Shown here piece after piece: positions 6,666-51,700 of a DNA stretch of 64,000 bases. Under the pieces are notes generated by a model, which did not search any database, was not told the DNA's origin, and saw only the letters and a program-made list of their open reading frames with translations. How positions within the stretch are numbered: position 1 is the stretch's first letter; the number at the start of each line of letters is the position of its first letter. The DNA comes from an uncultured Verrucomicrobiae bacterium. Lineage in GTDB: Bacteria > Verrucomicrobiota > Verrucomicrobiia > Limisphaerales > JAFGQR01. The position numbers were made by a program, and so were the translations under genes. The stretch lies in assembly GCA_963788655.1 (NCBI GenBank), contig CAWBHS010000089.1, positions 43,059 to 107,058 on the forward strand. The letters are read 5' to 3'.

Positions 6666-9600
6666 ATGAAACGTCGTATCATTTCCTCCCTGGTGATTCT
6701 CTTCCTATGTAGCCCCGCTGTGCTTCCGTTGTTCGCGGCGGATACTATCGTCATTTCGGAATTCATGGCCAATAACAATGGGATCCTTGCGGACGAGGAC
6801 GGCGACTTTTCGGATTGGATTGAACTCCATAATCCCACGGCCACGGTCGTCGAGCTGGAAGGCTATTACCTGAGCGATGATCCGGGCCTGCTGACCAAGT
6901 GGGCCTTCCCGGCGGTCAGCCTGTCGCCGGACGGCTATTTGGTGGTGTTCGCATCCGGCAAGAACCGCTCCAATCCGGGCGGCCAGTTGCACACGAGTTT
7001 TCAATTGAATACTGATGGCGAGTTTCTGGCGCTGGTGTTGCCGGATGGGCACACGCTGGCCAGCGTGTTCAATCCGGAGTATCCACCACAACGCGAGGAC
7101 GTGGCCTACGGCGTGGCCCAACAACCCGTGTCCATCGCACTTATCGCCAGCTCGGTGCCGCAGATTCTGGTGCCGGCCAATGCCGGCGAATTACCGGCGA
7201 ATTGGAGCGCGGTCGATTTCCAACCCGACGGCAATTGGATTAATGGCAGCGCCCCGGCGGCTATTGGCTTCGATACCGATCAACCAACGGCCACGCCCGT
7301 AAACGTCGCTCCCGGTGGCACAGCCGTGCAAAGCACCACCTCCGGCGGTAACACCGCCAACCTGGCCACCGATGGCAGCACGGCAAATTTCACCCACACC
7401 CTGTCCGCTGACACTTCGCCATTTTGGCAGGTTACACTGGCCAGTGAAACCGCCGTGTATCGTGTCGTATTGCGCAATCGCACGAGTTGCTGCCAGTCCC
7501 GGTTGCGCGATATCACCGTGCAAATTCTTTCGGCGGACGGCAACGCCACCAACTACAACTCTTCCCTGCTCAACGCGGAGAATGTGGGTTACACCTATCC
7601 GGCTGGCCCGGCTTCGATTGAAGTCGATTTGACCGCGCTGGCGGGCGGCCCGGTGTTGGGCCAGGTGATACGGGTGTTGCGCGCGCCGGACCCGGACCTT
7701 TCCGGCAGTGGTGGCCAGGGCGGTGCTGACGAAGTTGCCGTGTTGTCGTTGGCGGAAGTTGAGGTCCATGGCGTGCCCACGGCTACTGAAGTGAATCTGG
7801 CCCGCACCGGCAGTCCGGCGCCCACCGCGTCCCAATCGTCCACTTTGAGCACTTACACTCCGGACCTCGCCATCAATGGCAACCTCGGTGATTTCACGCA
7901 TACCGCCAGCGCGGACTCCAATCCCACTTGGACCCTCAATCTGGGGCGCCGCTCCGTGGTCAATTCCGTGACGATTCACAACCGTGATGACTGCTGCGGA
8001 TCGCGATTGCGCGACCTCACCGTGCAAATTCTCGACACCGACGGTTCGACCGCGGTTTATACTTCACCCTTGTTGAATCCGGAGAATGCCGGTTACAGTT
8101 TTCCGAACGGCCCAGACCATCTCGATGTTGTTCCTCCCGCGCCGGTGCTCGGCCAATACGTGCGCATCCGGCGGACCCCGGACCCCGATCTTTCCGGCAC
8201 TGGTGGCCAGGGTAATACTGACGAAGCCGGTGTCTTAGCCCTGGGCGAAGTGATCGTGCTGGGTTTGGATGTGAACGGCTATCGTCCGTTTATCCGCACC
8301 GACCTCGAGAACCAAATGCTCGGCAACAATGCTTCGGCGTTTGTGCGCCTACCCTTTACGGTGGATGATCCGTCGGTGCTGGATGAACTCACGTTGCGGT
8401 TGCGCTACGACGACGGATTTATTGCCTATCTTAATGGGGTGAAAATCGCCGAACGTAACGCGCCCGCCACGCCCGCCTGGAATTCGGCTGCCACCGTTGA
8501 TCGCGACCTCGCCAGCGGCATCCTACCGGAAACGATTTCGTTGACTGACTACCTGCCGCAACTAATGGCCGGCGTCAACGTGCTGGCAATTCAGGCGATG
8601 AACTCGAGCGTCAGTGACGGCAATTTTCTACTCCAACCGGAATTGACCGGCGCGCAGATTGAAGAGAGTCCGTATGCCTATCTGGTGGACGCCACACCCG
8701 GTACCCGCAACGAAACGGACTATTACTTTGGCGACGTGGCGGACACCCAGTTCAGCGTGGACCGCGGATTCTTCGATGCACCGTTTACATTGGAGATCAC
8801 TTCCGCGACGCCCGATGCACAGATCTATTATTCCTTGGACGGCAGTGAGCCCAGCGCCAGCCGGGGCCTGCTTTATACCGAACCGTTGACCATCACGAAC
8901 ACCACCATCGTCCGCGCCCGCGCGTTCAAGCCGGATCTCAAGCCAACAGATATTGACACGGAGACTTACATCTTTCTGGACGATGTCATTCACCAGGCGC
9001 CCACCGGGGCGGCTCCGCCCAATTTCCCCGCGTCATGGGGCCGGAACCGCGTCGATTACGGCATGGACCCAACCGTCGTGTCCAAATACTCCCTGGCCGA
9101 ATGGCACGAGGCACTGACGCAAATCCCGACCATGTCGATCGTCACCGAGGTGGAGAACCTTTTTGATCCGGTGACGGGCATCTACGCCAACGCGGATGGG
9201 CACGGCGAAGACTGGGAACGGCCCAGTTCGATTGAGTTGATCGATCCGCACGGCACCCCGCAAGGCCAGTTCCAGGAGAACTGCGGGCTGCGCATTCGGG
9301 GTGGCTACAGCCGCAACACCGACTTCGTGAAACATTCCCTGCGCGTCTTTTTCCGGCGCGATTACGGAGCGGCCAAACTGCACTACCCACTCTTCGAAAA
9401 CGAGGGCGCCGACACCTTTGACACGTTTGATTTGCGCACCAGCCAAAATTACGCCTGGCCGCGGGAAACCAGCTTGAGCAACGGTCAAAACGATACGCTG
9501 GTCCGCGAAGTGTTTTGCCGCGAAACCCTGGGCAAGATGGGCCAACCCTACCGTCGCTCACGCTACTATCACCTTTATCTGAATGGACAGTATTGGGGTA

Positions 9601-12600
9601 TCTATATGACCGATGAGCGACCGGAGGCTTCCTACGGCGCCACCTACCTCGGCGGTAACAAGGATGATTATGACGTGGTGAAATGTGCCAATCACATCGG
9701 CAATTTCGTGACCGAAGCCACGGATGGCAACTTCGGTACCTGGACCAATTTGTTTACCATGGGGCTAGACATGCTCGACGACAGCGGCAATGCCAATTAT
9801 TTCCGCATGCTGGGCCGCAATCCGGACGGCACCCGCAATCCCGCGCTGCCCGTGATGGTCGATGCCGATAACCTGATCAATTACATGCTGGGGATTTTTT
9901 ACACGGGCGACGGCGATGCCACGCTGTCGTCTTTCCTGGGAAATACCGAACCAAACAATTGGTTTGGTATGAAGAACCGCAATAATCCCGACCAGGGTTT
10001 CTTGTTCTTCAACAGTGATTGCGAGCACACCCTGGGCGCCCCCAGCAGTCAGGTGGACCGCACCGGACCGTGGAAGGACATTGCGGGATCGAATGTCCGC
10101 AATTTCACCTATTCCAACCCGCAGTACCTGCACGAAGAATTGATGCTCAATCCCGAGTACCGCCTCCTTTTTGCCGACCACGTGCAACGCCATTTCTTCA
10201 ATGGCGGTGTGCTCACTCCGGAAGCATGCACGAATCGCTTCTTGCGCTGGGCGGACCAGATCAACCAAGCCATCCGCGCCTACGAAGCCCGCTGGGGCGA
10301 CGCGAATAACGCCCACGTCAAATATTCCGCGACCGATTGGACCAATCGCATTAACACCATCGTCAACTCCTGGTTCCCCAACCGCACGGCCACGGTGCTC
10401 CAGCAGCTCAAAGTCGATAACCTGTATCCCGCCATTAGTGCGCCGGAATTCAGTCAGCTTGGCGGCGACATTGCCGAAGGCTTCAACTTGACCATGACCA
10501 ATCCCAACGCGAGCGGCGCTATTTACTACACGCTCGACGGCACGGACCCGCGCCAGGTGGGCGGAACCGTCAATCCCACGGCCGCAGCGTACAGCAGCCC
10601 GATTGCGTTGAACGCCAGCACGCGCGTGAAAGCCCGGGTGCTCAACGGTTCAACCTGGAGCGCCCTGGTGGAAGCCGATTTTGCCATCCCCGGCATCGTG
10701 CCGTTGCGCATCACCGAATTGATGTACCACCCGGCCCCGGTGAGCGCAACCGAGGCGGCGGCGGGATTCAGCAACGCCGACGACTTCGAATTCATCGAAC
10801 TGCGCAACGTCGGCGCGATCACCATCAACCTGGCCGGCATCCAATTCGTTGACGGGATCACCTTCACCTTCCCCAGCGGCAGCTTGGCGCCCGGCGAACG
10901 TATCCTGGTGGTGAAGAATCTGGCCGCCTTCAACCTGCGCTACGGACCCGTGAGTCGTGTGGCCGGTTATTATAGCGGCAACCTGAACAATGCCGGCGAG
11001 CATCTCCGGCTCCAGGACGCGGCGGGGCGGGCCATCCTGGATTTCTCCTACGCGGACGGGTGGTATCCCATCACGGACGGATTTGGTTTCTCGTTGGTGG
11101 CCGTGGATGAGAACGCGCCAGCTTCGACTTGGGGCAGCAAGTCCAGTTGGCAGTCGGGCAGCAACCTGGGCGGTTCGCCCGGCGCGGCCAATCCTCCGTC
11201 ACCGGGAATCCCCTTCGTCGTCATCAACGAAGTGCTCACCCGGCCGGCGGCGGGCGGCAAGGTCAGCGTTGAACTCGCCAACTTGAGCGACAGTCCGGCT
11301 GATGTTGGTAACTGGTGGCTGACGGATGATTTTCGCAATCCCTGGAAGTTCCGTTTGCCGGCGAACACCATCATTCCCGTGGGCGGTTTTGTGGTATTCA
11401 ATGAAGATGATTTCGGCCCGACCGCATTGGGAATGAATGCTATACAGTTGAGCAGCGCCGGCAGCGAAATTCGCTTGTTCAGCGCGGACGCCAATGGGGA
11501 TTTCACCGGCTACGTCCAAGGCTGGGACTTTGGACCGGCGGAAGCTGACGTGAGCTTTGGCCGGTACGTGATTAGCACCGGCGCGGACCATCTGGTGGCG
11601 CAAACCGCCGTGACGCTGGATGCCACGAATGCCGAACCGCGGATTGGCCCGGTGGTGATCAGCGAGATCATGTATCGTCCACCCGACCTGGGCATGAACG
11701 ACAACAGCCGGGATGAATACCTCGAACTGTTGAACACTTCCCCGAATCCGGTGCCGTTGTTTGAACCGGCTGCGCCGGTTTACACGTGGCGGGTCACGGG
11801 CGGTGTGGATTTCGCCTTGCCACCCGATCTGACTCTGGCGGCCGGCGAATACTTGTTGGTGGTCAGTTTCAATCCGGCGACTGACCCGGCATTGCTGGCC
11901 GATTTCCGCGTCCGCTATTCCGTACCCGCCAACGTTTGCATCCTGGGACCCTACAGCGGCAAGCTCGACAACTCCGGGGAAAGCGTGGAATTGCGAACGG
12001 CAATCCGGTTGCCGACCAGTCTGCCGGCTTGGGCGATAGCGGACAAGGTTTCCTACGAAGACGCCGACCCGTGGCCGGGCGGCGCCGACGGTTACGGACC
12101 CTCGCTGCAACGTGTGGACGTGGCTGCGTACGGCAATGATCCAGTGAATTGGGTGGCGGTGGGACCGCGTCCCGGCCGGACCTTTGTCGGCGGCACGCTG
12201 CCGGTGATCACAATCCAGCCCACGGACCAAGCAGCGGTGGAGCAAACGAGCGCCACGTTTAGTGTCGAGGTGGAAGACAGCAGTGCCGTTACGTACCAGT
12301 GGCGTTTCGAAGGCCACAATATTGCGGATGCCACCAACACAACGTATTCGATTGAGCCTGTGCAGCCCGCGGATGAGGGCTTGTATTCGGTGGTGATTCT
12401 GGGTGCGGGTGGCGCCGTGGTCAGCAGCAACGCCGCGCTCACCGTGCTCTCATTGCCCAAAATTATCGTCCACCCGGAAAGCCAAACCGTGGATGCTGGC
12501 GGCACGGCGATGCTCTCCGTCGTCGCCTCGGGCACGGGTTCTCTGAGCTACCAATGGCGGCGCAATGGGATCGACGTTCCCGGCGCGACCAGCGCCTCGC

Positions 12601-13920
12601 TAACCGTGACGGATCTCCAACTCGACGTGAATGACGGGATCTACACGGTGGTGGTTACCGACGCGGTGGGATCGCGCGAGAGCCATCCCGCGCTGGTGGT
12701 CTTGCTCCTGCCGCCGGCCGTTGTGGAAGGCCCCTTTCCGACCAATCAGGTCGTGGCCTCGGGCAGCACCTTCACCATCAGTCTGACGGTTCGGGGCACG
12801 TTGCCGATCGGCTATTATTGGCGCCTCGGGAACGGGTATTATAACTTCGAATCCGGAGGCGGGTACACCTATGCCGAGACGAACTCGGCGTACGTCAGCA
12901 CGAGCGTGCTGGTGATTACCAACGCGCAGAAGGCCTTACACGAGAATAAATATCGCGTGGGCATCAGCAACAGTGTTCAGACCTACCAAACTGCCAGTGC
13001 CTATGCCTATGTGACCGTCATTGACGGCCCGGCCATTACGCTGCAGCCGACCAATCAATCGGCCGCGCTGGGTGCCCCGGTTACCTTCCATGCCGGCGCG
13101 AGCGGCGAAGCGCCGTTGACGTTCCAATGGTGGCACAATGACGCTCCGATCGCCGGCGCCACCGGCACCAGTTACAGCCTCAACAGCGTGCAGGCCAGCG
13201 ACGCCGGCGCGTACACGTTTGTGGCGAGCAATCCGGCCGCCAGCGCCACGAGCCACGTGGCGTATCTGACGCTGCCCGTGGCTCCGACCATTGTCACGCA
13301 ACCGGCGGATCAAGCGGTGCATGTCTGCTCGAATGCGGTGTTCACGGTCGAAGCCAGCGGGGCGCCCTTGAGCTACCAATGGTGGTTCAATGCGACCAAT
13401 CGCCTGGCCAATGAAACCAATGCCAGCCTGGTGATCGTTCAGCCGGGCCTGGCCGATGAGGGCCGTTACTCGGTGGTGGTCAGCAATCTCTTTGGCGCGA
13501 CGCCGAGTGACGCCGCCACGTTGACCCTGCTCGACGGGGACAGCGATGGTGACGGCATGAGCGACACCTGGGAACTGGCGCACGGCTTGAATCCTTGCGA
13601 TGCGTCGGACCGCGATCTCGACCCGGACCAGGACGGGCGCACCAACTGGCAGGAATTTGTTAGCGGCACCGACCCGGGCAGCAACGCCAGCGTTCTGCGG
13701 GTGAGTTTGGTGGGTGACAGCGGGGGAGCGCGCATTCAATTCGAAGCGGCGCCCAATGTCGGGTACACGATCCAGGTACCGGACCAGCTTGACGGAAGGG
13801 CCTTGGCTGAAATTGACCGACATCGAACCCGCAGCGACTCCGCCGTCGGTGGACTTCCTGGATCCCAACGTAGCGGCCGATGGCGGACGGTTCTATCGCA
13901 TCGTCACGCCCAGGCAGTAA
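6666..13920 (+). CDS. Large secreted protein: lamin-tail domains, 2 F-type lectin domains, CotH kinase, Ig repeats, C-terminal RFYR domain (frameshift ~13775)
   Basis: Signal peptide; VISEFMANN...DWIELHN (LTD); NRDDCCGSR; GLRIRGGYSR, YYHLYLNGQYWGIY; ITxQP/YQW Ig repeats; true C-terminus ...GGRFYRIVTPRQ is in ORF 13714..13920. Confidence 0.8.
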
Positions 13921-13937
13921 TAGGCAGAACCTCTTCG

Positions 13938-14303
13938 GTTCGGAGTCCCGGCTTTAGCCGGTCAAAGCATGCATCCAAGAGCGGGCACCCAACGGTTAGG
14001 CCCCCGGTTCTGATGAATCATACAACGGCGGTTGATTAGGCACCGAGAACGCGAAGATTTTGGACGGTTCATTTCACCGCAAAGACACGGAGAGCGCAAA
14101 GAATCTGGTTCGGAATCTTTGCGCCCTTCGTGTCTTTGCGGTGAGTCAGGCGGCCTACTTGCAGTTCTGACGGTCGGAGTCGATATTCGCGCTGCTTTGG
14201 GTTGGAGCTCTGCTGTTGCAAGTGGCGACGAGATTTTCTGCGCGCGGCACCAACCTACCACGATTTAGCGCGAACGCCTTGCCGGCTGAAGCCGACTCCA
14301 AAC
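13938..14303. repeat. GGAG-type REP pair enclosing a second palindrome
   Basis: gttcggagtcccggctttagccgg (13938) and its inverted copy ccggctgaagccgactccaaac (14282-14303). Confidence 0.55.
14074..14144. repeat. Palindrome with 29-bp arms
   Basis: tcaccgcaaagacacggagagcgcaaaga versus reverse complement of 14116-14144, 27/29 identical. Confidence 0.8.
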
Positions 14304-19580: not shown

Positions 19581-20812
<1,232 letters not shown>

Positions 20813-20869
20813 GGGCGCCGATTAAACGGGGAAGCCTGACAGAACGCAAAGCCGAAAATGAACTGGCAA

Positions 20870-20910
20870 AATGACTGACAACCAAGGACCAAGCCCCAGA
20901 GAATGACCAA
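20870..20910 (+). repeat. Left heptamer-periodic inverted repeat bounding the R-M island
   Basis: 31/41 identical to the reverse complement of 25521-25561. Confidence 0.55.
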
Positions 20911-20959
20911 GGGCGAAGGCGCAAGTTCCATCACGGCGTAACGCGCCTCCCAATGCGCC

Positions 20960-21849
20960 ACGCTTGAGCAAGCTGCGTAAATCGTCGCGGTCTTTGGCCT
21001 GCACCGGCGTCTGGCGCAGCAACTCTTTGCAAAACGAGAATGTGTCGAAAAGCTGGTCGTCCAAATCGTTACGGTCGGTCAACACGACAACGGTAGGATT
21101 CTCCATCGCCGGGTGTTGCACGATCTTTCCGGCGTAGAACACCATCGAAAGACTTTTACCGCTCCCTTGCGTATGCCAGATGACGCCTGCGCGACGGTCG
21201 CCAATATTTTCCGAGGTAGGAGACGAGGTGACGAGGCTCTGACTAATTTCCGATTTTGAAGTTCGAGTCTCCTCACGTCGTCTCCTACTGGATTCAGAGG
21301 AAACACCCGCCGCCCGCAAGGTCGTTTCCACCGCTTTATTGACGGCGTGGAACTGATGATAGCCCGCCAGCTTCTTCACGACCTTTTCGCCGTCGTCCTC
21401 GAATACGATGAAATTGCGGATTAAGTCCAACAAGCGGTGATTGTCGAACACGCCTTTGAGCAGCGTTTCCAGTTGCAACGAACCGGGCGGGACAAGCTCC
21501 TTTCCCGTAATGGTGCGCCACGTCATGAACCGCTCCCAATCAGACGTGACCGTGCCGAGCCGCGCTTCGTGGCCATCGGAAACGCGCGATTGTTCTCGAT
21601 GAGCGTGGGATAATTGACCAAACGCAGTTTGCGCAACGTTTCCTGCAACCCCTCCGGCGGAATCTTGGAATTCAAATCCTCCAGCTTGGTTTGCAGCCGG
21701 TCGAAAAGAAAAACCTGCTGGTAATCCGCCCGCTCCGCCGCTGATTCACCCGGCGCGATGGTGAGGCCAGATAAAACCTCGCAACCAAGCTCACGAAGCC
21801 TGTCGAGCGAGCATTCTTCAACGACCGACTCCGTGATCCCTTTGCTCAT
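20960..21849 (-). pseudogene. hsdR: Type I restriction subunit R remnant: nuclease domain deleted, helicase truncated
   Basis: ITESVVE...LIENNRAF joined directly to SDGHEARLG...ERFMTWRT; YHQFHAV, WHTQGSGKS, VLTDRNDLDDQL; similarity ends before the DEAH motif. Confidence 0.88.
21216..21288. repeat. GTAG palindrome inside the hsdR reading frame
   Basis: gtaggagacgaggtgacgaggctc ... gagtctcctcacgtcgtctcctac, 21/24 arm identity. Confidence 0.8.
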
Positions 21850-22715
21850 TTCTTCTTTGGTTTGTCGTGCAACACCATCTCCGACAACTCGTGGTTGCCG
21901 ATTTCTTCGGCAACGTGCTCCGCGAAGTGTTCCAGTTCATTCTCGCGGACAAGTTGTTTATGCCCCGGAATCTTGCTCAACAGATGAAACGCGTTTTCAA
22001 ACGCCTTCTTGGTCTCATCCTGGCGCGGCTCGCCCAGCAGGAAGTGAATCTTGAATTTCTCCCGTGCATCATGCAGCGCAACTCCGCGGCCAAGCCATTT
22101 ATTCGCCTTCTCACGGATGCTGCCCGGATCAACGAGGTCAAACGAAACCGGCTCGTAGAGATGCCAGACGTCATTCTTCCACGCGAAGCGAAAATCGTAT
22201 TGGTAGTCCTTCGTCTCGATTTTCTTTTCCGCCAGCTTTTCCGCCGTCTTGCCCAGCCTCGCTTTGAACGGCTTTGCAATTTCCTCGTCGCTCCGGCTCA
22301 CCTGTTCCGCGCCGGCGACGTATCGCTCCACCAACCGCTTGAACAATTCGTCCATTGTCTTCGCCACGTCCTCCGTGAAACCGCCGCCCTGTTCCGACCA
22401 TTGCAGCGAACTGTCGTCCGGTGGCAGCACTTGCCGGACGATTTCCTTGAGCGCAGTCACCGGTGGAACTTCGAGACCGTCGCGGATTTCGGCGGCGATT
22501 TCGTCGAACCGGTTCGCCATGTAACGCATCAAGGCCCGGTAGTGCAGATGGTCAATCTTCAAAAAGATCGCGTTCAACCGTCCGTAGGACGTGGTGAAGC
22601 GGGCTTCCAGATACCGTTGCTCGGGCGAATAGAGCACAACCCCGATGTTGGCGAATTCGCCGGTCACAACGTCGTGCAGATAACGCAGTGTGATGGTGCT
22701 GTAGGTTGGTTTCAT
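21846..22715 (-). CDS. DUF3037 domain protein with C-terminal restriction-endonuclease-like domain
   Basis: YSTITLRYLHDVVTGEFANIGVVL (DUF3037 signature), AWKNDVWHLYEPVSFDL; ATGA overlaps at both ends. Confidence 0.8.
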   Translation of the reverse strand: MKPTYSTITLRYLHDVVTGEFANIGVVLYSPEQRYLEARFTTSYGRLNAIFLKIDHLHYRALMRYMANRFDEIAAEIRDGLEVPPVTALKEIVRQVLPPDDSSLQWSEQGGGFTEDVAKTMDELFKRLVERYVAGAEQVSRSDEEIAKPFKARLGKTAEKLAEKKIETKDYQYDFRFAWKNDVWHLYEPVSFDLVDPGSIREKANKWLGRGVALHDAREKFKIHFLLGEPRQDETKKAFENAFHLLSKIPGHKQLVRENELEHFAEHVAEEIGNHELSEMVLHDKPKKK

Positions 22716-23516
22716 CGCAGTATGTGTTTTACGTAATTTACCAAATTGTCCCGGTGCTGGCGAGCCTCTCGGAGATACGCGGCGACCTGCTCGCCAAAGT
22801 CGCTCTGTCCCAGCCACTCCGCCGGAACAGCGTCAAGATAGCCTTGAATCCGCTTGTCAGACAGTGCGCCGAGCTTTTCCTTGAATGGGCCAAGATTCAG
22901 CCGCCCGCCGCGCAAGTCTGCCATAGAAAACGTGCTGTTCCAGAAACCGGAAACCATTCCCCTGACTGGCTGCGGCCCAGGGCTTTGGCGCTCCACCGAT
23001 AATCGGCACGGACAAGAATGAGAACGCCTGCTCATGGTCGTAAACGCCGAGCCGGTCCGAACGCGCCCAAAGGTTGGGATTCACCGCCCGCCGGTCCGCA
23101 TTCTGGATCAACGTGTCGAAGGCAAAAATATCCGCCGCTTGATCCCGTTGCGCGCCGACCGGGTTGCGGCCGGGCGGCCACGTCGTAAATCCCGCGCCAA
23201 GGTGAACCGAACCAAAATTCAAGCCGGGACTGCCTTTAACCAATTTCACCAGTTCGCGTTCGGCTATGACAGCTTCAAAACCAACCGGCACGTCCACGAC
23301 CGCTGCTTGCGGGACTTGCAGTCCAAGGTTGTCTGCCAATTGCGCGGTGAGCAATTCGGCGGTTTGCGCCGTCCCGGTCATCTCGCGCCCGCGAAACTTC
23401 ACCACCACCTCAAACGTGTCACCGCCCGCGTTCTCGCAACCCAGCAACAGCGGATGATTCCGCCCTGTGGACATCGCCTTGATGAATTGCGTGGCTGTGA
23501 GCTCCAGGACTTCCAT
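22712..23516 (-). CDS. HipA-like Ser/Thr kinase (HipA_2 type), one apparent extra base at ~22918
   Basis: GRNHPLL, VVKFRG, ELLTAQLADNLGLQVP, FDTLIQNADRRAVNPN, YDHEQAF; C-terminus LDAVPAEW in ORF 22712..23035. Confidence 0.82.
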
Positions 23517-23518
23517 AG

Positions 23519-24562
23519 TCAGGTGGTTGCCTCCACAAGTTTGGCGGCGGCGGGCACGCGCAACTCGCCCGACAGCAGCTTCGGCATCAGCGCGTCGCGC
23601 AGCGCGGCGAGGGTGCGGGATTCGTGGAGGTTCGCAATGATTCGTTCGACGAGCGGATGAATCTTCTCAGTGAACTCGGCGGCAAGCTGTTTCGGTGGCA
23701 GCGCAACTTCGTAACGGGAAATGTCATTCCAATTTGCCCGTGGCATCTTCGTTCTGGTTGAAGCTGCGTTTGTGTGGTTCACAAGCTCGACGCTGGAAAC
23801 GTGGCCAAGCACAAAGCCGAACCATGCAGGTTCTTTTGGCGTGATGACCAAAATATCTGTTGAGCAAACGCCATCCAGCGGGGCGACACCGATTTTGTGA
23901 AAGTAAGGCCGCAGTTTGCCGAAAAGGATTTCGCCGCGCTTGAACTCGAATTTGCCACTCTCCAACTCTTCGGTGTGCCCCCAATCGGAAAGCGCAATGC
24001 AACGACGCGGCATGTGTTCAAGTCCGATGTATGCCATATCGGTTTTAATTTGGTCCGGCTGGATTCCGCGACGCGGATTCTCGGCGACTTCACCGAGCGT
24101 TCCCGCGCGCCAGCCTTTGGGGAGGGCGGATTGGCCTGCCTGTCTGCGGGACGCAGGCAGGGTGGCCCGATCCACGAACCAGGATTTGAACAGGCTCTGG
24201 GCCAGCGCCTCCAGCGTCTCGTTCATCCGCCGGTTCAAATCAATCTTGTCGTCCAGAGTGCCCAACACCGCGGCAATTGCACGCTGTTCGTTTGGCTCGG
24301 GAATGCAAATGGGAATATGGTAAATGAAATTCCGATTTAGTGATGCCTGTGCGCTGCCCGAGTTGTATCGGCTGAAATCAATAGACTTCAGAAAATAATA
24401 GGTGAACCGCGTGTCGTTGCCGCGAAAGTCTGTGACGTAAAGCGCGGTGTTGTGCGGCCAGTAATCAGTCGGGCAATAGTGAACTTGCCCGAATGATGCG
24501 CCGCTACGACCAACAACAACTCCCGGCCCTTTGGCTTTGGCTATGGCGTGGTAACCGTTCAT
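23519..24562 (-). CDS. hsdS: Type I R-M specificity subunit S, N-terminus clipped by a deletion
   Basis: [58 protein letters not shown]. Confidence 0.88.
24135..24161. repeat. 27-bp cctgcctg...caggcagg palindrome in-frame in the hsdS linker
   Basis: Removing it leaves the frame intact ([12 protein letters not shown]); encodes LPASRRQAG. Confidence 0.65.
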
Positions 24563-25240
24563 TCCAGCAGAACCCAGAACACGCGGCCTTTGTAGGGTTC
24601 AAGCATGGCGACGAGCACCTGCACGACGCATTGCGGGGTGTAGAACTCGCCGCCGCCCTTGCCTTCCGCGCTGGCGAATTTGCCGAGAAAGTATTCATAG
24701 ACGCGCCCGAGCACGTCCTTGGACTTCGCCGCCGATTCGTTGAAGCCGATGTTGCTGATGATGTCCACGAGTCCGCCGAGCCGGACTTTGTCGAGGCTGG
24801 GCCGGGCGTAATCGCGCGGCAGCACGCCTTTGAGCGTGGGATTCTCGCGCTCAATCGCGCCCATCGCGTCGTCAATGACCTTGCCAATCTCCGGCGACTT
24901 GGCTTTGGCCTTGATGGTGTGCCAGCGGGCTTCGGGCGGCAGCCAGAAGACATTCGCGGCCAGATATTCGTCGCGGTTCTCGGCGGCGTCGGCGCGTTGC
25001 GGTTCGTCCTTGATGAACCATTCGCTCTTGGGATCGGAGAAGCCGAACAGCAGTTGCTCGCGTTTTTCCTCGAAGGCGTCGGAGATGTATTTCAGGAAGA
25101 TGAGGCCGAGGCAGACGTGCTTGTATTCCGAGGCGTCCATGTGCCCGCGCATCTTGTCGGCGGCGGCCCAGAGCTGGGCTTCAAAGTTCGAGGGCGGAGC
25201 CGTTGCCGTTGGGCTTTTTCTGAGGTCGTGCTTTCGCCAT
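24559..25240 (-). pseudogene. hsdM: Type I R-M methyltransferase M, N-terminal domain only
   Basis: [44 protein letters not shown]; ends at GRVF just before motif I (DPxCGSGG); no NPPF. Confidence 0.9.
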
Positions 25241-25498: not shown

Positions 25499-25520
25499 GG
25501 TGACTGTGGAATCTTCGGAT

Positions 25521-25561
25521 TTGGACCTTCTCTGGTCATTGGCCATTGGTTATTGGTCATT
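25521..25561 (-). repeat. Right heptamer-periodic inverted repeat bounding the R-M island
   Basis: (ttggtca)-like heptamers; inverted match to 20870-20910. Confidence 0.55.
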
Positions 25562-25570
25562 GAGAGCAGG

Positions 25571-26447
25571 TCACTGAAGATACGGTTCAATGTGGACCAG
25601 CACGTCGAACACGGCGGGGATTTCGACACACACCTGGTCCTTGACCGCATGGGCAATCGCGTGGGCTTTCTTGACGGAGATCTCGGGGTCCACTTCCACG
25701 TGCATGTCCACGTAAAATTGGAATCCCATTTTGCGCACGCGGCATTTTTCAATCCTCGCCACCCCCTCCACCTGACCGGCAACGGCGCGGATCTTCTTGA
25801 TCAGACCGGGATCGGGCGCGGTGTCCATGAGTTCATTCAGGGCGGGCCGCAGCAGGCGCCAGCCGTTCCAGGCAATAATGACGGCCGCGACAATGGCAGC
25901 AATGTCGTCGGCAATTTCGAATCCAGGTCCGCCGATCAACGCCACGGAAATGCCGATGGCCGCGGCGATGGAGGTGATGGCGTCACTGCGATGGTGCCAG
26001 GCATCGCTGCGCACTACGGAACTTTCCACCGAGTTGGCTTCCCGCAAGGCGAAGCGGAACAACGCTTCTTTGATGGCCACTACCGCAAACAGGACGGCCA
26101 ACGTGAAGGGCGCCGGTCCGATTTGGGGATTAATGATTTCATGGATGGCCTCAACCGTAATCCACACGGCGGCCAGCAACAGCATGGTGGCCACCAAGGC
26201 AGCCGCAATGGGTTCGGCTTTGCCGTGCCCGTACAGGATGATCCATGTCTGGTGGCTCGGAGGCCACCACCAGGCCCCGCCAAACAATCACCGAGCTGAT
26301 AATGTCCGACAGTGATTCCACAGCATCGGCGACCAGCGCATGGGAATGTCCGAGGAGCCCCGCCGTCAGTTTGCTGCCTGCCAGAGCCGTGTTCGCCGCC
26401 AACCCGATGAAGGTGACGCGCAAGCCGCGATAGAGACGCTGGTCCAA
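25571..26447 (-). CDS. Cation diffusion facilitator transporter (FieF-like; frameshift ~26240)
   Basis: SHALVADAVESLSD, HPYGHGKAE across the frameshift, DAWHHRSD, VLVHIEP. Confidence 0.88.
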
Positions 26448-35643: not shown

Positions 35644-35760
35644 TTGGGACAGCCGTCTCGGCTGTCTCGAATGATCGGCAACCTGCCGCCAGTCAGCGAA
35701 CGTTCAGCAAAGTATTGGAAGGCCTTGGGTCATTCGGGACCGGCGGGACGCCGGTCCTAC
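35644..35760. repeat. GTAG REPIN, family of 53148; right arm overlaps the adjacent stop codon
   Basis: gggacagccgtctcggctgtctcgaatga ... tcattcgggaccggcgggacgccggtcctac. Confidence 0.7.
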
Positions 35761-38700
35761 GGGGTTGGGAGCACGCGCACTCGGTAGAAACGTGCATCCG
35801 CAGTGGGCGCGGGATCGGTGAGCGTGGTAACGCCACCGCTGGCAGCGTTGGTCACTACGGAGGTCCAACTTGTTGGAGGAATTCCATCGGCGTAATCCAG
35901 AGCGTATGGGACGCCGTTGGTGCTCAGGAAAGAAAGGCCAAAAGCATTCGGGGAGTGGGAAATCACCATGAGGGCGGCCACCAGGTTGGTGGTTGCTCCC
36001 ACACTGTTCGACACCACCACCGAGTAGGCGCCGACATTGGTCGTTTGCACATTGGGGAGGAGCAACTCGCTACCGGTGGCGTCCGGGATGTCTGCGTTCC
36101 CGAACCGCCATTGCACGTCGGGCGTTGGGTAACCCACGACTTCCACATCCAAGCGAGCATCGCGCCCGGCGACGGATACCAGGTTCAGCGGTTGGTTCGT
36201 GATGCCCGGGCTGAACCGGACACTGAGAGTGGCGGCGGTGCTGTTCGTTGCTCCCGATTCATCGGTGAGCGTGACGCGATAAAGTCCGGCAGCTTCCGGC
36301 TGAGCGTTCGTCACTGAATACGTGCTGTTGGTGGCTCCGGCAATGGCCATGCCGTCGGTGCTCCATTGATAGGTCAACGGCGCGGGACTGCTAACGGTCA
36401 GGTTGAACGTGGCGGTATCGCCTTGATCGACTTCCACGTTGCTCAACGGCGTAAAAACGCTTAGCACCGCCGGATCGCTGGTTTCGCGCTCCCCGAGATC
36501 ATTCCAGGTAACGACCTCGTATTCGCCAGCGTCCGTTAATTTGAGATTGTTAATGCTTAGCGAGCTGAGGTTGGCACCGGGCAGATTGGCGCCGTTGTGC
36601 ATCCACTGGTAACTCAGAATTCCGGTGGCTTTGACGCCGACGGAGAATACGGCCCGGCCGGCGCGCGCGAGGATCTGGCTTGGCGGCTGATCGGTGATGC
36701 GCAGCGGCGAGTTCACGGTCAGGCTGGCCGACAAACTGGTATCCGAACCGTAAGCATTGGACACTTCCACGCGGTAGGCTCCCTCGTTGGTTTCATACGC
36801 GACCGGAATCAAGTAGGTGTCGCCGGTGGCTCCGGAAATGAGATTGCCTTTGAAGAACCACTGGTATGTAAAGGGCGTGTCGCCGGTGGCAGTGACCGAG
36901 AACATAACCGGTTCGCCTTCGAACACGAGTTGGCTGAGCGGATCCTGGGTGATGGTCGGCGGCAGGTGGACGGTCAATTGCACACTGGCACTGTCCACCG
37001 AACCGGCGGCGTTGGATACGGTGACGCGATAGCTGCCCGCGTTGGTCGTTTGCGCATTGGCAATGACCAGCGTATTGCCGGTGGCGCCCGCCATGGCGGT
37101 ACCGCCGAAATACCACTGGAATCCGGGGTCGGGTGATCCGGTGGCTTCGATCTGGAACGTTGCGGTTTCACCCTGGATGACTGAAAGGTTGGTCGGCGGC
37201 ACGGTGATCACGGGCGCTTCGAGGATGATCAAGCTCACCGGCGCGCTGGTCACCGCTCCCAGGCTGTTGGTGATCACGACGGTGTACATTCCGGCGTTGA
37301 TCTTCTGCGCGTTGATGAGGGTGAGGGAAGTGTTGGTTTGCTCAGGCACGATCAAGCCCTCGAAGTACCATTGATAACGGAGCGGAGCATCACCGGCCGC
37401 GGCGACAACGAACTCCGCCGTCGCGCCAGGATAGACCATGCGGTTGGTCGGTTGCACAGTAATCACCGGTGGTTGCGGGACCGTCACGGTCAAGGTGGCT
37501 TCCTGGCTGGTGGCTCGCTCGCTGTCACTGCTGGAAATGACCACCCGATAGCCGCCGGCGTCGCTCGCGCTTACCTCGACCAGGGTCAAATTACTGGAGG
37601 TGGCTCCCGGCAAAGTCACTCCATTGCGTTGCCATTCATACGTCAGGTTGGCGGAACTCTCAACCACCACACTAAACACCACCGTGCTGCCCTGGGTGAC
37701 GGACTGGCTGACCGGGTTGGTCAAAATCTTGAGGGGCACTTGAACGGTCAACGTGGCCACTTCACTGGTCGCAGCGCCGAACTGGTTGCCCACGACCACT
37801 TGGTATTCGCCCTCTTGGGCGAGTTGCACGTTGCTGCGCGTAAGACTGTTGGTGGTGGTTCCGGTTTGCTCGTTCGTCACCGTCTGAACGATATTGGTCG
37901 CTTGGAAATACCAACGGTAGGTCACCGGAACATCGCTTTCCGCAGTCACATAAAACGTGGCGTTACTGCTCCGGAGCACAGTCTGGTTGGTGGCGTCCAG
38001 TGTGATAACCGGGGGCAACGCACTTGCGCCGTATTCGAAGGCGCCGATGTCGCACCGCCCTCCGAACGGATACGGTCGGGTCACGCCGCGTTGATCGGTC
38101 GGCAGACAAAAGTTGGGATCGCCACTGTCGATGGCCGGACTGCCATCCTGCGGTTCCATGGTTTCCGTAGGTCCGCCGTAATCATCCAAAGTGTAAAGCA
38201 GGGGGTCAATGCTGTAGCTGCTGCCCGGACCCGTAAAGGGCGGGGTGATATCGGAATTGATATTATAACCGGCGTCGGTTACCGGCCCATAGAAATTTCC
38301 GCTGCTGACCCAGTAGGCAACGATCGTGTTTTTCAGGATCACGGCACTGCCCGCATTGCCGATGTTGTCGCCGCGCCAAGCGCCGTAGGCACCGTTTTGC
38401 CCCGGAAGAGATCCCCCGCCGCCGGCCAAACCGTTGGTGCCGGGAATGGTATTGCCGGAGGAAAAAGTGCAATTAGTGATCAGCGCCTGGCCTTGATTGT
38501 AGTAGTTGCCGCCCCAGGCACTACCACCGTTGCCGCCGTTGCCACCTTGTTGCGATCCGTAACCGCCGTTGCCGCCATTGCCTCCCGCTACGCTGTTCGT
38601 GTAAAAGGTGCAATTCAGCACGCGGTTCAGGCCATAGTTGGCAATCCCGCCCCCAAACGCATCCGCGCCGGCCGGACCGGCGCCGCCGGTGCCAGCCACG

Positions 38701-39635
38701 CCGCCACCATCACCCGAGTCGCCGCTTTGGACGTGGTTGTCGGTAAGCGTGGAGGCGGTGACCTCGCATTCACCCAGGCTGTAAATCGCTGCCCCGGCAC
38801 CGACAGCTCCAGCGCCTCCCTGGCCGAGGAAACTGGGGTTGCTGCCCACGCCGTTCGTGCCACCCGCACCACCCGCGCCCCCGACCGCACGATTCAGTTT
38901 AAAAGTAGATTCGGTGACGGACAGCTTGCTCTGGTTATAGATGACGCCGCCCTTCCCGATTGCCCCGCTGCCGCCGGCGCCGCCATTGCCGCCGAAAACA
39001 CTGCCATCCCCACCGTTGCCTCCTCCGCCGCCCGCACCGCCGGTCGCACTGTTGCCGACAAAGAGGCATCGGGCCGCAGTCGTCGTCGCGGCATTGAACA
39101 GAACGCCGCCCGACGCAGGCGCCCCGCCTCCTCCTGAGCCGCCCGGTTTGCCCTGCAATTCGCCGTCGGTGCCGTCGATTCCCGCGGTACCATCCGCGCC
39201 CAGGGCGATATTGTTGGTCAATACGCAATCCTCCAGCCCGAGCAGCCCTTGGTTGTAAATGGCGCCGCCCGCGGTGCTGCGGCCATCGGCCAACGTCAGA
39301 TCTTGAAGGGTGAACTGAATTCCCGGATTGACGGTGAAGAGACGGACGCCATTGGTCGATTCCGGGTCGTTGTCATAACCACCGCTGAGGATTACCTCGT
39401 AGCCAGCCCCGTTCAGAACCGTGTTGGTGCGGACTGTGATGGTTTGCGAAAGCGTGATGGTGCCGCTGTTGGTGAACGTGACCGTGCCGCCATTGGTCAT
39501 CGCATTGAGGAGCGCGGTTTGGGTCATGTTGGTCACGACGCCATCGGCGTATGCGGGGCAGGACAATTCAATCCAAGCCGGAAATACTCCAGCAATAAGA
39601 CACACACGGGCCAGTTGTTGTAGTCGCACCTTCAT
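35757..39635 (-). CDS. Secreted Gly-rich beta-helix / choice-of-anchor Q protein with about 8 Ig repeats and C-terminal RFYR domain
   Basis: Signal peptide; GGAIYN repeats; SPAIDSG...DQRG...CDIGAFE; PxIT..P/YQW repeats; ends DARFYRVRVLPTP. Confidence 0.85.
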   Translation of the reverse strand: MKVRLQQLARVCLIAGVFPAWIELSCPAYADGVVTNMTQTALLNAMTNGGTVTFTNSGTITLSQTITVRTNTVLNGAGYEVILSGGYDNDPESTNGVRLFTVNPGIQFTLQDLTLADGRSTAGGAIYNQGLLGLEDCVLTNNIALGADGTAGIDGTDGELQGKPGGSGGGGAPASGGVLFNAATTTAARCLFVGNSATGGAGGGGGNGGDGSVFGGNGGAGGSGAIGKGGVIYNQSKLSVTESTFKLNRAVGGAGGAGGTNGVGSNPSFLGQGGAGAVGAGAAIYSLGECEVTASTLTDNHVQSGDSGDGGGVAGTGGAGPAGADAFGGGIANYGLNRVLNCTFYTNSVAGGNGGNGGYGSQQGGNGGNGGSAWGGNYYNQGQALITNCTFSSGNTIPGTNGLAGGGGSLPGQNGAYGAWRGDNIGNAGSAVILKNTIVAYWVSSGNFYGPVTDAGYNINSDITPPFTGPGSSYSIDPLLYTLDDYGGPTETMEPQDGSPAIDSGDPNFCLPTDQRGVTRPYPFGGRCDIGAFEYGASALPPVITLDATNQTVLRSSNATFYVTAESDVPVTYRWYFQATNIVQTVTNEQTGTTTNSLTRSNVQLAQEGEYQVVVGNQFGAATSEVATLTVQVPLKILTNPVSQSVTQGSTVVFSVVVESSANLTYEWQRNGVTLPGATSSNLTLVEVSASDAGGYRVVISSSDSERATSQEATLTVTVPQPPVITVQPTNRMVYPGATAEFVVAAAGDAPLRYQWYFEGLIVPEQTNTSLTLINAQKINAGMYTVVITNSLGAVTSAPVSLIILEAPVITVPPTNLSVIQGETATFQIEATGSPDPGFQWYFGGTAMAGATGNTLVIANAQTTNAGSYRVTVSNAAGSVDSASVQLTVHLPPTITQDPLSQLVFEGEPVMFSVTATGDTPFTYQWFFKGNLISGATGDTYLIPVAYETNEGAYRVEVSNAYGSDTSLSASLTVNSPLRITDQPPSQILARAGRAVFSVGVKATGILSYQWMHNGANLPGANLSSLSINNLKLTDAGEYEVVTWNDLGERETSDPAVLSVFTPLSNVEVDQGDTATFNLTVSSPAPLTYQWSTDGMAIAGATNSTYSVTNAQPEAAGLYRVTLTDESGATNSTAATLSVRFSPGITNQPLNLVSVAGRDARLDVEVVGYPTPDVQWRFGNADIPDATGSELLLPNVQTTNVGAYSVVVSNSVGATTNLVAALMVISHSPNAFGLSFLSTNGVPYALDYADGIPPTSWTSVVTNAASGGVTTLTDPAPTADARFYRVRVLPTP

Positions 39636-48777: not shown

Positions 48778-51700
48778 TTACGGAACCATTACGCGGAAGA
48801 TTCGCAGCGGCCGGACGGCCGGCACTTGCCACGGCGCGCTGGCGTCGGGATTGGCATACCAGGGTCCCAGAATGTCCTCCGCCTCTTCCAGGATGCCGTA
48901 CGGCCAGGAGAGCAGCAGGCTGGAGCCTTGCGGCGGCGCGTCGAAGTTAAGACGCACCATCAACGCGTCCGGCGCGACCAGTTCCGCGTCGTCGCCGCTT
49001 ACGATGGCGGTGAGTTCGGATTCGTCGAGCATCCGGTCGTAGATGCGGAAGTCGTCGAGGCTGCCGTTGTACGTGCGCCAGTAACCATCATGCGACCGGC
49101 CGATTTCGATGGATTGTTTGACCGGCCAGATCCAGGCGCTGGAATTGCCTTGAGACGTGTCCAGCACGCCGTCGAGGTAGATCGAAATCGATCCGGCCGC
49201 CGACTGATCATACACGTAGGCGACATGGTGCCAGTCGTTGTCATTGACCGTGTTGGCCGTGACAAACGAATTGCCGCCACCGTTGTTCTGCACAAACAGG
49301 GTGCCATCGTCTTTCATGACAATGACATCCCCTTCCGAAGTGCGACGGTCAAAGATGATGGAGCCTTCGCTGCCGCTGGTCATGTCGTTCCCCGCGGTGC
49401 GCATCCAGAACGCGATGGTGCCTTGAGCCCCATCAAAGTCCGGATGAGCCGGCAGGACGATCTGATCGCCTTCGGGGGCCACAAACTGCGCGACCCCCGA
49501 GCGGGTGGTGGAGATGTTGTCGGTTTCGGAATCCAGCCAGGCGGTGCCGTTATCAAGGCCGTCGTGCGGCAGACCGACCGGTTTCGAATCCAGGACGGCC
49601 GGGCCTTCTGTCGCCGTCAACGAGAGCGCCAGGGTTTCGCCGGACCCGTTCAGGTAGAGGTTGCCAATCGCGGCCAGGCTCAGCGCCTGGTTGTAAATGG
49701 CCACGTCATCGATGATGCCATTGAACAGGCGCGTGCCCGCCGAGGTGTCTTCGCCGATGTAAGTAGTGCCGTTGAATTCCTCGATGTCGTTGGCGACGAT
49801 ACGAACCGCCGACTGGAGTATGCCATCAGTGCCTAGATAGAGGGTACCGTTGGTGGGCGTGACGACCAGGGCCACGAAACTCCACTGGTTCGTTGGCACG
49901 ATCAGCTCGGAGTTCCAACCCCAGGTGGCATTGGCGTTGTTCCAGGTGAAACGCAATTCGTTGCCGTCACCGTAATGCACGCCGGCCACCGTGCTGCCCG
50001 CCCGGCTGAACACGATTCCGCGCCAGCCGCCTTGATCGCCATCGGGATAAATCCAACCGGCGATGGTGACGGTGTTGGTGTAGAGGTTCAGCGCCGGCAG
50101 GGCCACGCGGGAGCCGGCCACGCCGGTCAATTGAACGGCCGTGTTGTCAGCTTCGAAGCCGCCGAATTGCGGTCCCGGGGCGCCCGGCACGGCGCCAGCA
50201 TCGTAGGTGCCATTGTGGCCGCCCCAATAATCGTAGGCGGTGGTGGCGCCAACGGCCTCATCCAACGGCCAAAAGCCTACCGGATCTTGCGTCAGCACTT
50301 CGCTCGCGTAACCGTTCTCCGCCGGCACCAGCACGGTAAGCAGGGCTGGAATCGAATCATCGAAGCCGCTGTCGTTCTCGATGCCCACAAAATATTCGCC
50401 CGCGTCCGGACCCGTCACATTGGCAATGGTGAGCGTCGCGCTGTTGGCACCGGAGATACTACCATTGTCGGTGAGCGGGTTGTTGTCGTGGTACCATTGG
50501 TAATTTATCGGCAGCGTGCCCACCGCCGTCACTTGGAAGGAAACGCTCTGGCCGGCGTAGCGGGTTTGACTGGTCGGCTGATAGATAATCGTCGCGCCCA
50601 CCTCGCCCGCGCCCTGCGCGTAGATGGCGTTAATGGTCTCCGCCGAGAGGGCATGGTCGAAGACCGCGACTTCGTCGATGGCGCCAGAGAAGTAGTTGCC
50701 AGTGGCGTCCAGCACGGCGGCGCCGATGCGGAAGGGCGACGGGGAACTGCCGTAATTGTTGGTCGTGTTCAGGGCGCTTGCGATGGGACTGCCATTTCGG
50801 TAGAGCGTGAGTTGAGTGCCATCGCCCACCGCGGCCAGGAAATACCATTGGCCGGCGCTGATGAGCGAGGTGGGATCGAAAGCCACCAAACCCGTCGCCG
50901 GCGTCCAGATGCCGAGGTCGGTTGCGGTATGGAAGCCAAATTCGGCCACGTCATTTTGGCCAAACAAGCCGACGCGTGCGCTGTCGCCCGACATCTGCGG
51001 CATGACCGATGGATTGAACCAGCCCATGATGGTGAACTGCGTGCGGTCGTTTATGAGGCTGGCCGAGGTGGAGGTGCTGGCGCTGGTATTGGTGCCGTCG
51101 TAACTGGCGGCGTTGTTGTCGCTCTCGAAGCCGGGCGAAAGCGGCGGGCGCGGTCCGGCCACGTAGGTCACTTGGTCATTGGTGGCGTCGTTGCCGCCGA
51201 AATAATCGTAGGCGGTCAGCGCGCTGTCCGTTTCATTGAGCCGCCAGTAGGCCAGCGGTTGATTGGTAATGATGGTATCCTCGAAACTGCCCGCCGTGAC
51301 CGCTAACAACGTAAGCCCAACCGTGGACGAGTTGGTCCAACCGACCTGGTTCGTCACGTAAAGCGTATAGTTGCCGGCATCGGCCGTTTGCAGGTTGGTC
51401 AGCGTCAGGGTCACATTCGTAGCATCCGTGATGGGGGTACCGTCGTGTTCCCATTGGAACTGGAACGGTGCGGTGCCCTCGATGATCGGCGCAAAGACCG
51501 CGGTGCCGCTGCGGTACCGGGTGGCGGGCGCGATGTCCTGGGTCAGCAGCGGTGGGGCGTCCTCCACCGTGATGGTGTTCGTGATGCTCAGGACCGAACC
51601 GTTGTCATTCGAAACCTGCACGTAATAATCGCCGGAATCGGTCGGCACGGCATTGGACAAAACCAGCGTCGCCTCGGTGGCGTTTTCAACCGGATCAACG

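Follow-up and report, generated by a model that had tools for sequence, protein, structure and literature searches.

A probable HipA-like kinase and DUF3037 anti-phage pair within a decayed type I restriction-modification operon of an uncultured Verrucomicrobiae bacterium

The stretch of DNA considered here (the window) comprises 64,000 nucleotides of contig CAWBHS010000089.1 in assembly GCA_963788655.1, from an uncultured Verrucomicrobiae bacterium. Its positions 23516-21846 encode a short HipA-like kinase and a DUF3037 protein, which very probably represent a member of the anti-phage family known as PDC-M66, DS-6 or HipAD, and which lie in a decayed type I restriction-modification (R-M) operon. 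Anti-phage pairs of this type are already known, being catalogued in PADLOC and having homologues that were tested in Escherichia coli. The support obtained here consists of family membership, conservation, gene coupling and R-M decay, and the proposed mechanism is drawn from the tested homologues.

The kinase gene and its DUF3037 partner

All genes of the locus lie on the minus strand, in the 5' to 3' order hsdM', hsdS', HipA_2 kinase, DUF3037 and hsdR', with the following extents in amino acids (aa) and open reading frames (ORFs):

24559..25240, minus strand, hsdM' remnant: ATG at 25240, extra base near 25191, open frame 25152-24559; HsdM_N and partial N6_Mtase
23519..24562, minus strand, hsdS' remnant of 347 aa: ATG overlaps the hsdM' stop; Methylase_S profile positions 66-167 at aa 20-118
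22712..23516, minus strand, HipA_2-type kinase (PDC-M66A) of ~267 codons: split by one extra base at ~22917-22922
21846..22715, minus strand, DUF3037 protein (PDC-M66B) of 289 aa, intact: Pfam DUF3037 and PDC-M66B
20822..21849, minus strand, hsdR' remnant: aa 1-90 in ORF 21849-21523, aa 215-410 in ORF 21526-20822

The hsdS' stop codon (TGA, 23521-23519) and the kinase ATG (23516-23514) leave a gap of 2 bp, the kinase stop in its shifted frame and the DUF3037 start share an ATGA at 22715-22712, and a second shared ATGA joins the DUF3037 stop to the hsdR' start at 21849-21846. An earlier note on this DNA had described this gene order on one strand with the 2-bp gap and both overlaps, and the sequence confirms it; the same note held that the kinase motifs VVK, NxDRxxxNxN and YDHE are intact, that a single extra base at ~22918 splits the kinase and that a HipB-type gene is lacking, all of which agrees with the results given below.

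The kinase matches Pfam HipA_2 with an E-value of 1e-15, and HipA_C only sub-threshold (E 0.008). The residues of its motifs VVK (K40), QNADRRxxNPN (D141, N148) and YDHE (D160-E162) stand in nearly invariant columns (at least 90% conserved) of a 29-row alignment, and HipA_2 is found in 28 of these rows, the sole miss being the window's 68-aa C-terminal piece or a similar short row. The N-terminal part of the kinase is contained in an ORF of 219 aa (23516-22857), the final ~20 aa of which are out of frame; the frame is broken after aa ~199, and the C-terminal part follows as 68 codons in the next frame (22918-22715), which are free of stops and align residue by residue with the C-termini of relatives. 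The ratio of non-synonymous to synonymous substitution rates (dN/dS) is 0.07-0.11 for the N-terminal part and 0.27-0.32 for the part after the shift, compared with 0.13-0.57 for the same C-terminal part in intact pairs. No ORF of the helix-turn-helix (HTH, HipB) type was found among those at 20.8-25.3 kb of the locus, and there is no room for a HipB gene ahead of the kinase, because only 2 bp separate it from hsdS'. The HipA N-terminal domain had no match in the short (267 aa) kinase, and a sequence search of solved structures with the kinase family profile returned nothing at E<=0.1, neither HipA nor HipT.

The partner protein matches Pfam DUF3037 (E 3e-20), a domain detected in all 36 family partners, and 33 columns are invariant among these 36 sequences; dN/dS of the DUF3037 gene is 0.05-0.10. 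The predicted model of the protein has two domains, at aa ~1-135 and aa ~139-281, with a predicted local distance difference test (pLDDT) score of 84. Neither Foldseek with this model (E<=0.001) nor a sequence search of solved structures with the DUF3037 family profile (E below 0.1) returned a match. The best structural alignments of the C-domain are to BstEII (Z 7.4, root-mean-square deviation 3.9 A over 129 residues), BsoBI (7.1), Cdn1 (6.8) and PspGI (6.7), followed by Bax1, XPF and Can2, with all Z values inside the unremarkable range of the tool. A restriction-endonuclease-like fold of the predicted C-domain is hence possible but weakly supported, at Z 5-7.4. The "REase-like" label that the earlier note gave to the partner stands to this extent only, as a weak resemblance of fold (best Z 7.4), and the canonical D...(D/E)xK motif is missing from the invariant residues of the 36 sequences, so that nuclease activity of the C-domain is not implied.

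The N-domain modelled alone reaches a pLDDT of 86 and a predicted TM-score (pTM) of 0.83. Its best structural neighbour among 48,161 PDB representatives has a Z of 3.9 (VIA-align), and Foldseek found none at E<=0.001. A HipS-like mimicry of the HipA N-subdomain by the DUF3037 N-domain was considered and is unsupported, as no HipS or HipA row occurs in the top 50, which does not in itself show that the folds differ.

A known family of anti-phage pairs

PDC-M66 is a phage-defence candidate in PADLOC-DB v2.0.0. The kinase matches its profile PDC-M66A in two pieces, with an E-value of 1.9e-47 for the N-terminal part (profile positions 12-212 of 270) and 7.9e-11 for the C-terminal part (184-269), and the DUF3037 protein matches PDC-M66B with an E-value of 3.4e-76 (3-279 of 281). 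The pair occurs in one copy in the whole genome, and its two genes adjoin each other on one strand with the gene order of the PADLOC system, from which it differs by the one-base frame break of its kinase.

Two experimental studies have dealt with such pairs. At the Retron-Sda1 locus, a HipA-like kinase/DUF3037 pair labelled PDC-M66 by PADLOC protects E. coli from phage Bas51 without the retron parts; deletion of the kinase abolishes defence, and deletion of DUF3037 is toxic, according to the available part of that text (PMC12548924). The Sda1 pair bears the same label as the window pair, but it adjoins a type III retron reverse transcriptase, not an R-M operon. DS-6, renamed HipAD, protects E. 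coli as well, and a kinase active-site mutant gives no defence; AlphaFold3 predicts that its two proteins bind each other (interface predicted TM-score 0.76-0.79), and its authors hypothesize a toxin-antitoxin or abortive model and credit Brenes & Laub 2025 with the independent discovery of HipAD, as stated in the accessible sections of the DefensePredictor paper (PMC13092281). In its available text, a third study describes 145 PDC candidates, which go back to genes lodged inside BREX, DISARM and type I R-M systems (Payne et al., bioRxiv 10.1101/2024.01.29.577857); PDC-M66 is presumably one of these embedded candidates, and the main text, as far as available, names neither HipA nor PDC-M66. 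The view in the earlier note, that the pair is a candidate anti-phage module in which DUF3037 restrains the kinase, was right in substance but describes what had already been known (PDC-M66; PMC12548924, PMC13092281).

Like the window pair, DS-6/HipAD combines a HipA-family kinase with a DUF3037 partner and has no HipB, according to the part of its description that is available (PMC13092281). One point of sequence weighs against the family assignment. DS-6B is described in that same part as DUF3037 plus DUF1829, whereas the window family has DUF3037 only by Pfam: of the three profiles that the earlier note had named for a search, HipA_2 and DUF3037 were found and DUF1829 was not, in any of 36 family members at E<=1. 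A tblastn search of phage records with both proteins (see below) gave no match either, and the link of the window pair to DS-6 is one at the level of family and architecture only.

HipBA and HipBST likewise consist of a HipA-superfamily Ser/Thr kinase toxin neutralized by a protein partner, and the catalytic-loop and Mg-binding Asp motifs are kept in the window kinase, where we take them to correspond to HipA residues. The window pair differs from these systems in having no HipB HTH gene, a short kinase and the putative toxin gene in first position, and the canonical HipBA arrangement, an upstream HipB HTH gene with a full-length HipA carrying the N-terminal domains, is not what is found here.

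By analogy with the tested homologues, the short HipA_2 kinase would act as a growth-arresting toxin that the DUF3037 protein, made from the overlapping downstream gene, would neutralize by binding. Phage infection would upset this balance and free the kinase, and the infected cell would halt before the phage completes. The cassette occupies the gap from hsdS to hsdR in a type I R-M operon; this operon had been inserted between argG and a cation-efflux (CDF) gene and has since decayed.

Decay of the type I restriction-modification operon

The earlier note had placed the pair within a type I R-M operon; hsd genes do flank it, but all three are fragments (related loci are given below as L numbers, and other contigs of the same genome as C numbers). 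By Pfam, hsdM' retains HsdM_N and only positions 2-48 of 311 of N6_Mtase, so the catalytic methylase domain is gone; the remnant corresponds to aa 28-219 of the 724-aa HsdM of the relative L007 (blastp), ends after about 190 aa, and scores 40 bits against TIGR00497, for which the NCBIfam cut-off is 243. The match of hsdM' to L026, at 96% DNA identity, breaks off at 24577, a point from which the relatives continue into the catalytic motif, and ~1.9 kb are gone between this point and the conserved middle of hsdS. hsdS' is without its first 57-69 aa, its aa 13-338 matching aa 70-399 of the 403-aa HsdS of L026 (blastp). hsdR' keeps aa 1-90 and 215-410 of ~1060 (blastp to L007 HsdR), seen by Pfam as HSDR_N positions 3-84 of 198 and SWI2_SNF2 positions 1-91 of 221 in two frames, and reaches 122 bits against TIGR00348 (NCBIfam cut-off 285). 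L007 and L026 show the two TTTC repeats between which hsdR' has lost 316 nt, and to judge by these repeats the loss is a microhomology deletion. Real similarity to hsdR extends to ~20963, and beyond it only a 31-nt internal piece (20956-20926), which matches C75:126077-126107, precedes a repeat and the start of argG. The set of a complete HsdM, an HsdS with two target-recognition domains and an HsdR, which defines a functional type I R-M system, is not present at the locus. As read from the sequence, the operon has decayed through at least four deletions, from which the 1.67-kb pair lost nothing.

It may be asked whether the truncations are those of the assembly rather than of the organism, which would then possess an intact hsdMS-kinase-DUF3037-hsdR operon obscured by a mis-join or a strain mixture. 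The source genome is a bin of 115 contigs, 86% complete and 5.6% contaminated, and frame errors are locally dense in it. Two findings in particular weigh against decay in this sense. Near-identical public contigs (1 mismatch in 288 nt) cease to match exactly at the 24577 junction, beyond which one of them continues with 33 unlike letters, so that a strain mixture is possible; and a second hsdR, at C75:124645-127759, matches a relative over aa 21-1060, is spread over at least three frames and is cut off where its contig ends. However, there are four separate junctions, one of them marked by a clean microhomology of 4 nt, the repeats of which are present in two relatives, and the C75 hsdR is not identical to the window pieces, with 83-90% protein identity to the hsdR' remnant. 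No second hsdM or hsdS was found in the bin, and C75 represents a different locus, because argG is single copy. An artefact of this kind is therefore regarded as improbable, and genuine decay of the operon is preferred.

Related loci and the hsdS-hsdR gap

The family profile retrieved 1,725 cluster representatives at E<=1e-10 from a library of 1.84 billion proteins, and the family is present in 12 of 401 sampled genomes of the phylum Verrucomicrobiota and in 13 plasmid records, while a tblastn search with the kinase and the DUF3037 protein against 50,697 phage records gave no match. Related loci were surveyed in a set of 39, in 37 of which the state of the kinase could be assessed. The DUF3037 proteins are 63-91% identical to that of the window in Verrucomicrobiota, ~45% in Desulfobacterota, Kiritimatiellia, Acidobacteriota and Latescibacterota, and 29-37% in Alphaproteobacteria. 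In 35 of the 37 assessable loci, DUF3037 is immediately preceded by a kinase match; the kinase is intact in 29 of the 37, broken in 6 and absent from 2. Of the 39 DUF3037 genes, 36 have their full length, 2 run into a contig end and 1 is truncated.

The same survey bears on a reading favored by the earlier note, in which the pair is a PrrC-like guard, coupled physically or functionally to the type I R-M enzyme and set off when this enzyme is inhibited by an anti-restriction protein of a phage. The pair does occupy the position of PrrC in EcoprrI, between hsdS and hsdR and co-oriented with them, and PrrC is almost exclusively R-M-embedded according to the available text of Payne et al.; hsd genes flank the pair on both sides in 9 of the 39 loci and on one side in 4 more (owing to contig ends or as mere remnants), and the DUF3037 stop shares an ATGA with the hsdR start not only in the window but also in L007, L010 and L015, at DUF3037 identities of 68-91% to the window. 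Against this, 22 of the 39 loci have no hsd gene within the available DNA, including all 13 alphaproteobacterial ones (three of the 22 are contigs of less than 8 kb), and a further 4 have only distant methylase- or S-like genes upstream. The homologues protect E. coli without an R-M partner, as reported in the accessible parts of both studies (PMC12548924, PMC13092281). PrrC itself is an ABC-ATPase/anticodon nuclease silenced by the R-M enzyme, in the description available from Payne et al., whereas the window effector is a kinase with its own predicted inhibitor. Moreover, near-identical cassettes occur in unrelated hsd operons: in L005, the DUF3037 protein is 90% identical to that of the window, whereas the HsdR start is only 49% identical, and five other genes lie in between. 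In the window, guarding of this kind cannot operate, because the R-M enzyme is truncated in all three genes, and a functional R-M partner is hence missing. On these grounds the guard model is most unlikely and is set aside in favor of a self-contained toxin-antitoxin-like pair.

A further argument against guarding is that the same gap houses many unrelated cassettes. The hsdS-hsdR gaps of L004, L005, L007, L016, L017 and L026 contain PDC-S02 (Mrr-like), PDC-M04A/B (DUF3800) and GmrSD/HEC-06 with DUF4268, as well as a cytidine-deaminase protein, SieB, an AbiP2 reverse transcriptase, DUF6119, DarT/DarG and an RmrA-like M78/HTH protein, and the gap is thus a general swap site for defence cassettes in related Verrucomicrobiota. 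Stubs of the hsdS 3' end or the hsdR 5' end stand between cassettes at L005:9131-9200, L007:6138-6239, 6807-6902 and 8448-8552, L016:8998-9207, and L035:6455-6652 and 7803-8030, and from these stubs it looks as if cassettes were exchanged by recombination through the conserved ends of the hsd genes. Away from hsd operons, 116 neighbour proteins of 12 hsd-free loci were compared with PADLOC at E<=1e-10, which gave clear defence genes in 2 (L012, L028), partial matches of the mad3/mad8/WYL type in 4 and nothing in 6. A location in defence islands is hence not obvious for the pair beyond the embedded clade.

A narrower version of R-M dependence would apply to the clade with the DUF3037/hsdR overlap (window, L007, L010, L015), where the HipAD cassette might be more than a passenger and serve as a co-translated back-up layer, released according to the state of the type I R-M enzyme. 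This is very unlikely; were it true, the window would present an end state, in which R-M was deleted piecemeal around the addictive pair and the toxin was disarmed.

Two related loci show changes of their own. At L004:20-1705, a single open frame of 561 aa spans hsdS and a kinase that is without its first 10 aa, which may be a fusion or a small deletion. In L007, only the first 37 codons of the kinase are left (8565-8675), ahead of an intact DUF3037 gene, and L007:8675-9992 holds ORFs of 275 aa (no family match) and 199 aa (weak PIN match, E 1.6e-4), which may reflect a toxin swap.

The frame break in the kinase gene

Aligned with L004 and L005 (84% DNA identity over 1.67-1.77 kb), the pair shows exactly one gap, which corresponds to one extra window base at ~22917-22922, after the HVFY codons. 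This is one of six +1 insertions relative to relatives within 8 kb, none of them in a homopolymer: two in argG (19935 and ~20665, seen against three relatives), one in the kinase (~22919), one in hsdM' (~25191), one in the CDF gene (26234, extra against 4 of 4 relatives) and one in a GH57 branching-enzyme gene (27934). The argG, CDF and GH57 genes are each single copy in the genome, and a consensus error is the better explanation for all six insertions, because two real frameshifts in the sole argG are unlikely. The six insertions clustered in these 8 kb are probably local consensus errors, and judging from the sequence comparison the frame break of the kinase is likely to be an error of the assembly consensus too. 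No common sequence motif was seen by eye at the six sites. Paralogues on other contigs of the same genome also align as adjoining split pieces. The reads were checked through Logan contigs of four public runs, each of which held at most 0.10 of the sampled words at low depth; a near-identical public contig spans 22914-23070 without a gap, but the 20 letters to its left are unaligned, which makes this a weak test at low depth.

Beyond the 8-kb stretch, only two frame breaks were seen in the window, both of opposite sign, namely at 14680 in a gene for an alpha-L-rhamnosidase, where it puts the N-terminal ~85 aa into a different frame, and at ~40180 in a secretin gene, where it does the same to the C-terminal part.

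If the frameshift were real, the whole locus could be dead, with an orphan antitoxin-like DUF3037 gene amid R-M debris and no defence. The extra base outside any homopolymer speaks for this and against an assembly error, as does the state of the related loci, 8 of 37 having a broken kinase or none, against 1 of 37 with a truncated DUF3037. Each of the hsd genes flanking the pair has also lost a part. Toxin-antitoxin erosion in Photorhabdus most often takes the form of losing only the toxin, as given in the available text (PMC13617665), and the asymmetry between kinase loss and DUF3037 retention fits such erosion, although no statistic is attached to it, since the relatives are non-independent. 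A real break would then be the step with which such erosion usually begins, disarming the toxin while the antitoxin is kept, and the module would be inactive in this organism. However, five further +1 insertions in the same 8 kb, two in argG and one each in the CDF and GH57 genes among them, are hard to explain biologically, and the 68 codons after the shift are stop-free with a dN/dS inside the range of intact pairs. A dead locus is hence the less likely case, doubtful rather than remote, and a consensus error in an otherwise complete kinase gene is preferred.

Breaks in the kinase are found in four unrelated genomes, all at aa ~186-218 of ~265 (window ~22919, L017 ~2554-2560, L028 ~9864 and L042 ~9759-9765), L042 being the complete genome of an isolate. 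A range test for four random points gives p ~0.006 for this clustering. Programmed frameshifting in the kinase was considered and rejected, as the four breaks differ in direction and codon. In a weaker variant of the back-up-layer idea, these breaks in the C-terminal third of the kinase could represent a recurrent, selected taming of the toxin.

Borders of the island and neighbouring genes

The locus is bordered by short repeats and by the genes argG and CDF:

25520..25562, no strand assigned, short dispersed repeat at the upstream island border, between the CDF gene end and hsdM'
20880..20912, no strand assigned, related short repeat at the downstream island border, between the hsdR' remnant and the argG start, in opposite orientation
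19581..20812, minus strand, argG flank, single copy: extra bases at 19935 and ~20665, Pfam match split over three ORFs
25571..26447, minus strand, cation-efflux (CDF) gene flank: extra base at 26234, Pfam match split at profile position 60/61

In six relatives (G004, G005, G007, G008, G011 and G019), argG adjoins the CDF gene, and the ~4.76 kb between the two in the window are accordingly an inserted island, which has since shrunk by roughly 4 kb. A self-comparison of the borders shows that the two repeats have the cores TTGGTCATT and TTCTCTGG in common. By blastn-short, the repeat at 25520-25562 has 40 matches on 24 contigs of the genome and that at 20880-20912 has 10 matches on 7 contigs, this copy included in each case; copies of the former are partly arrayed, on contigs C65 and C62. 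An Rfam search of the window at 18-29 kb gave no match, and a promoter scan found one sigma-70-like site upstream of hsdM', with 3 sites compared with 1.9 +/- 1.3 in shuffles, i.e., not above the shuffles.

Elsewhere in the window, an ORF of 2457 aa (6666-14039) combines lamin-tail, F5/8 type C, CotH kinase, chitobiase-C and Ig domains, and two more giant Ig-repeat proteins are encoded at 35757-39635 and 48778-52446.

Implications

As a discovery, the pair carries little weight, since its type is contained in PADLOC and has been validated twice in E. coli, and embedding in R-M operons is a published search principle. Single-base frame errors are frequent in this assembly, and "pseudogene" calls in it need reads. 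The window instance is a cassette, possibly intact, in a dead R-M operon of an error-prone assembly. It extends the HipAD/PDC-M66 family to soil and peat Verrucomicrobiota, where it is sporadic, and it shows an embedded cassette that outlives its host R-M operon, as is expected for an addictive toxin-antitoxin pair.

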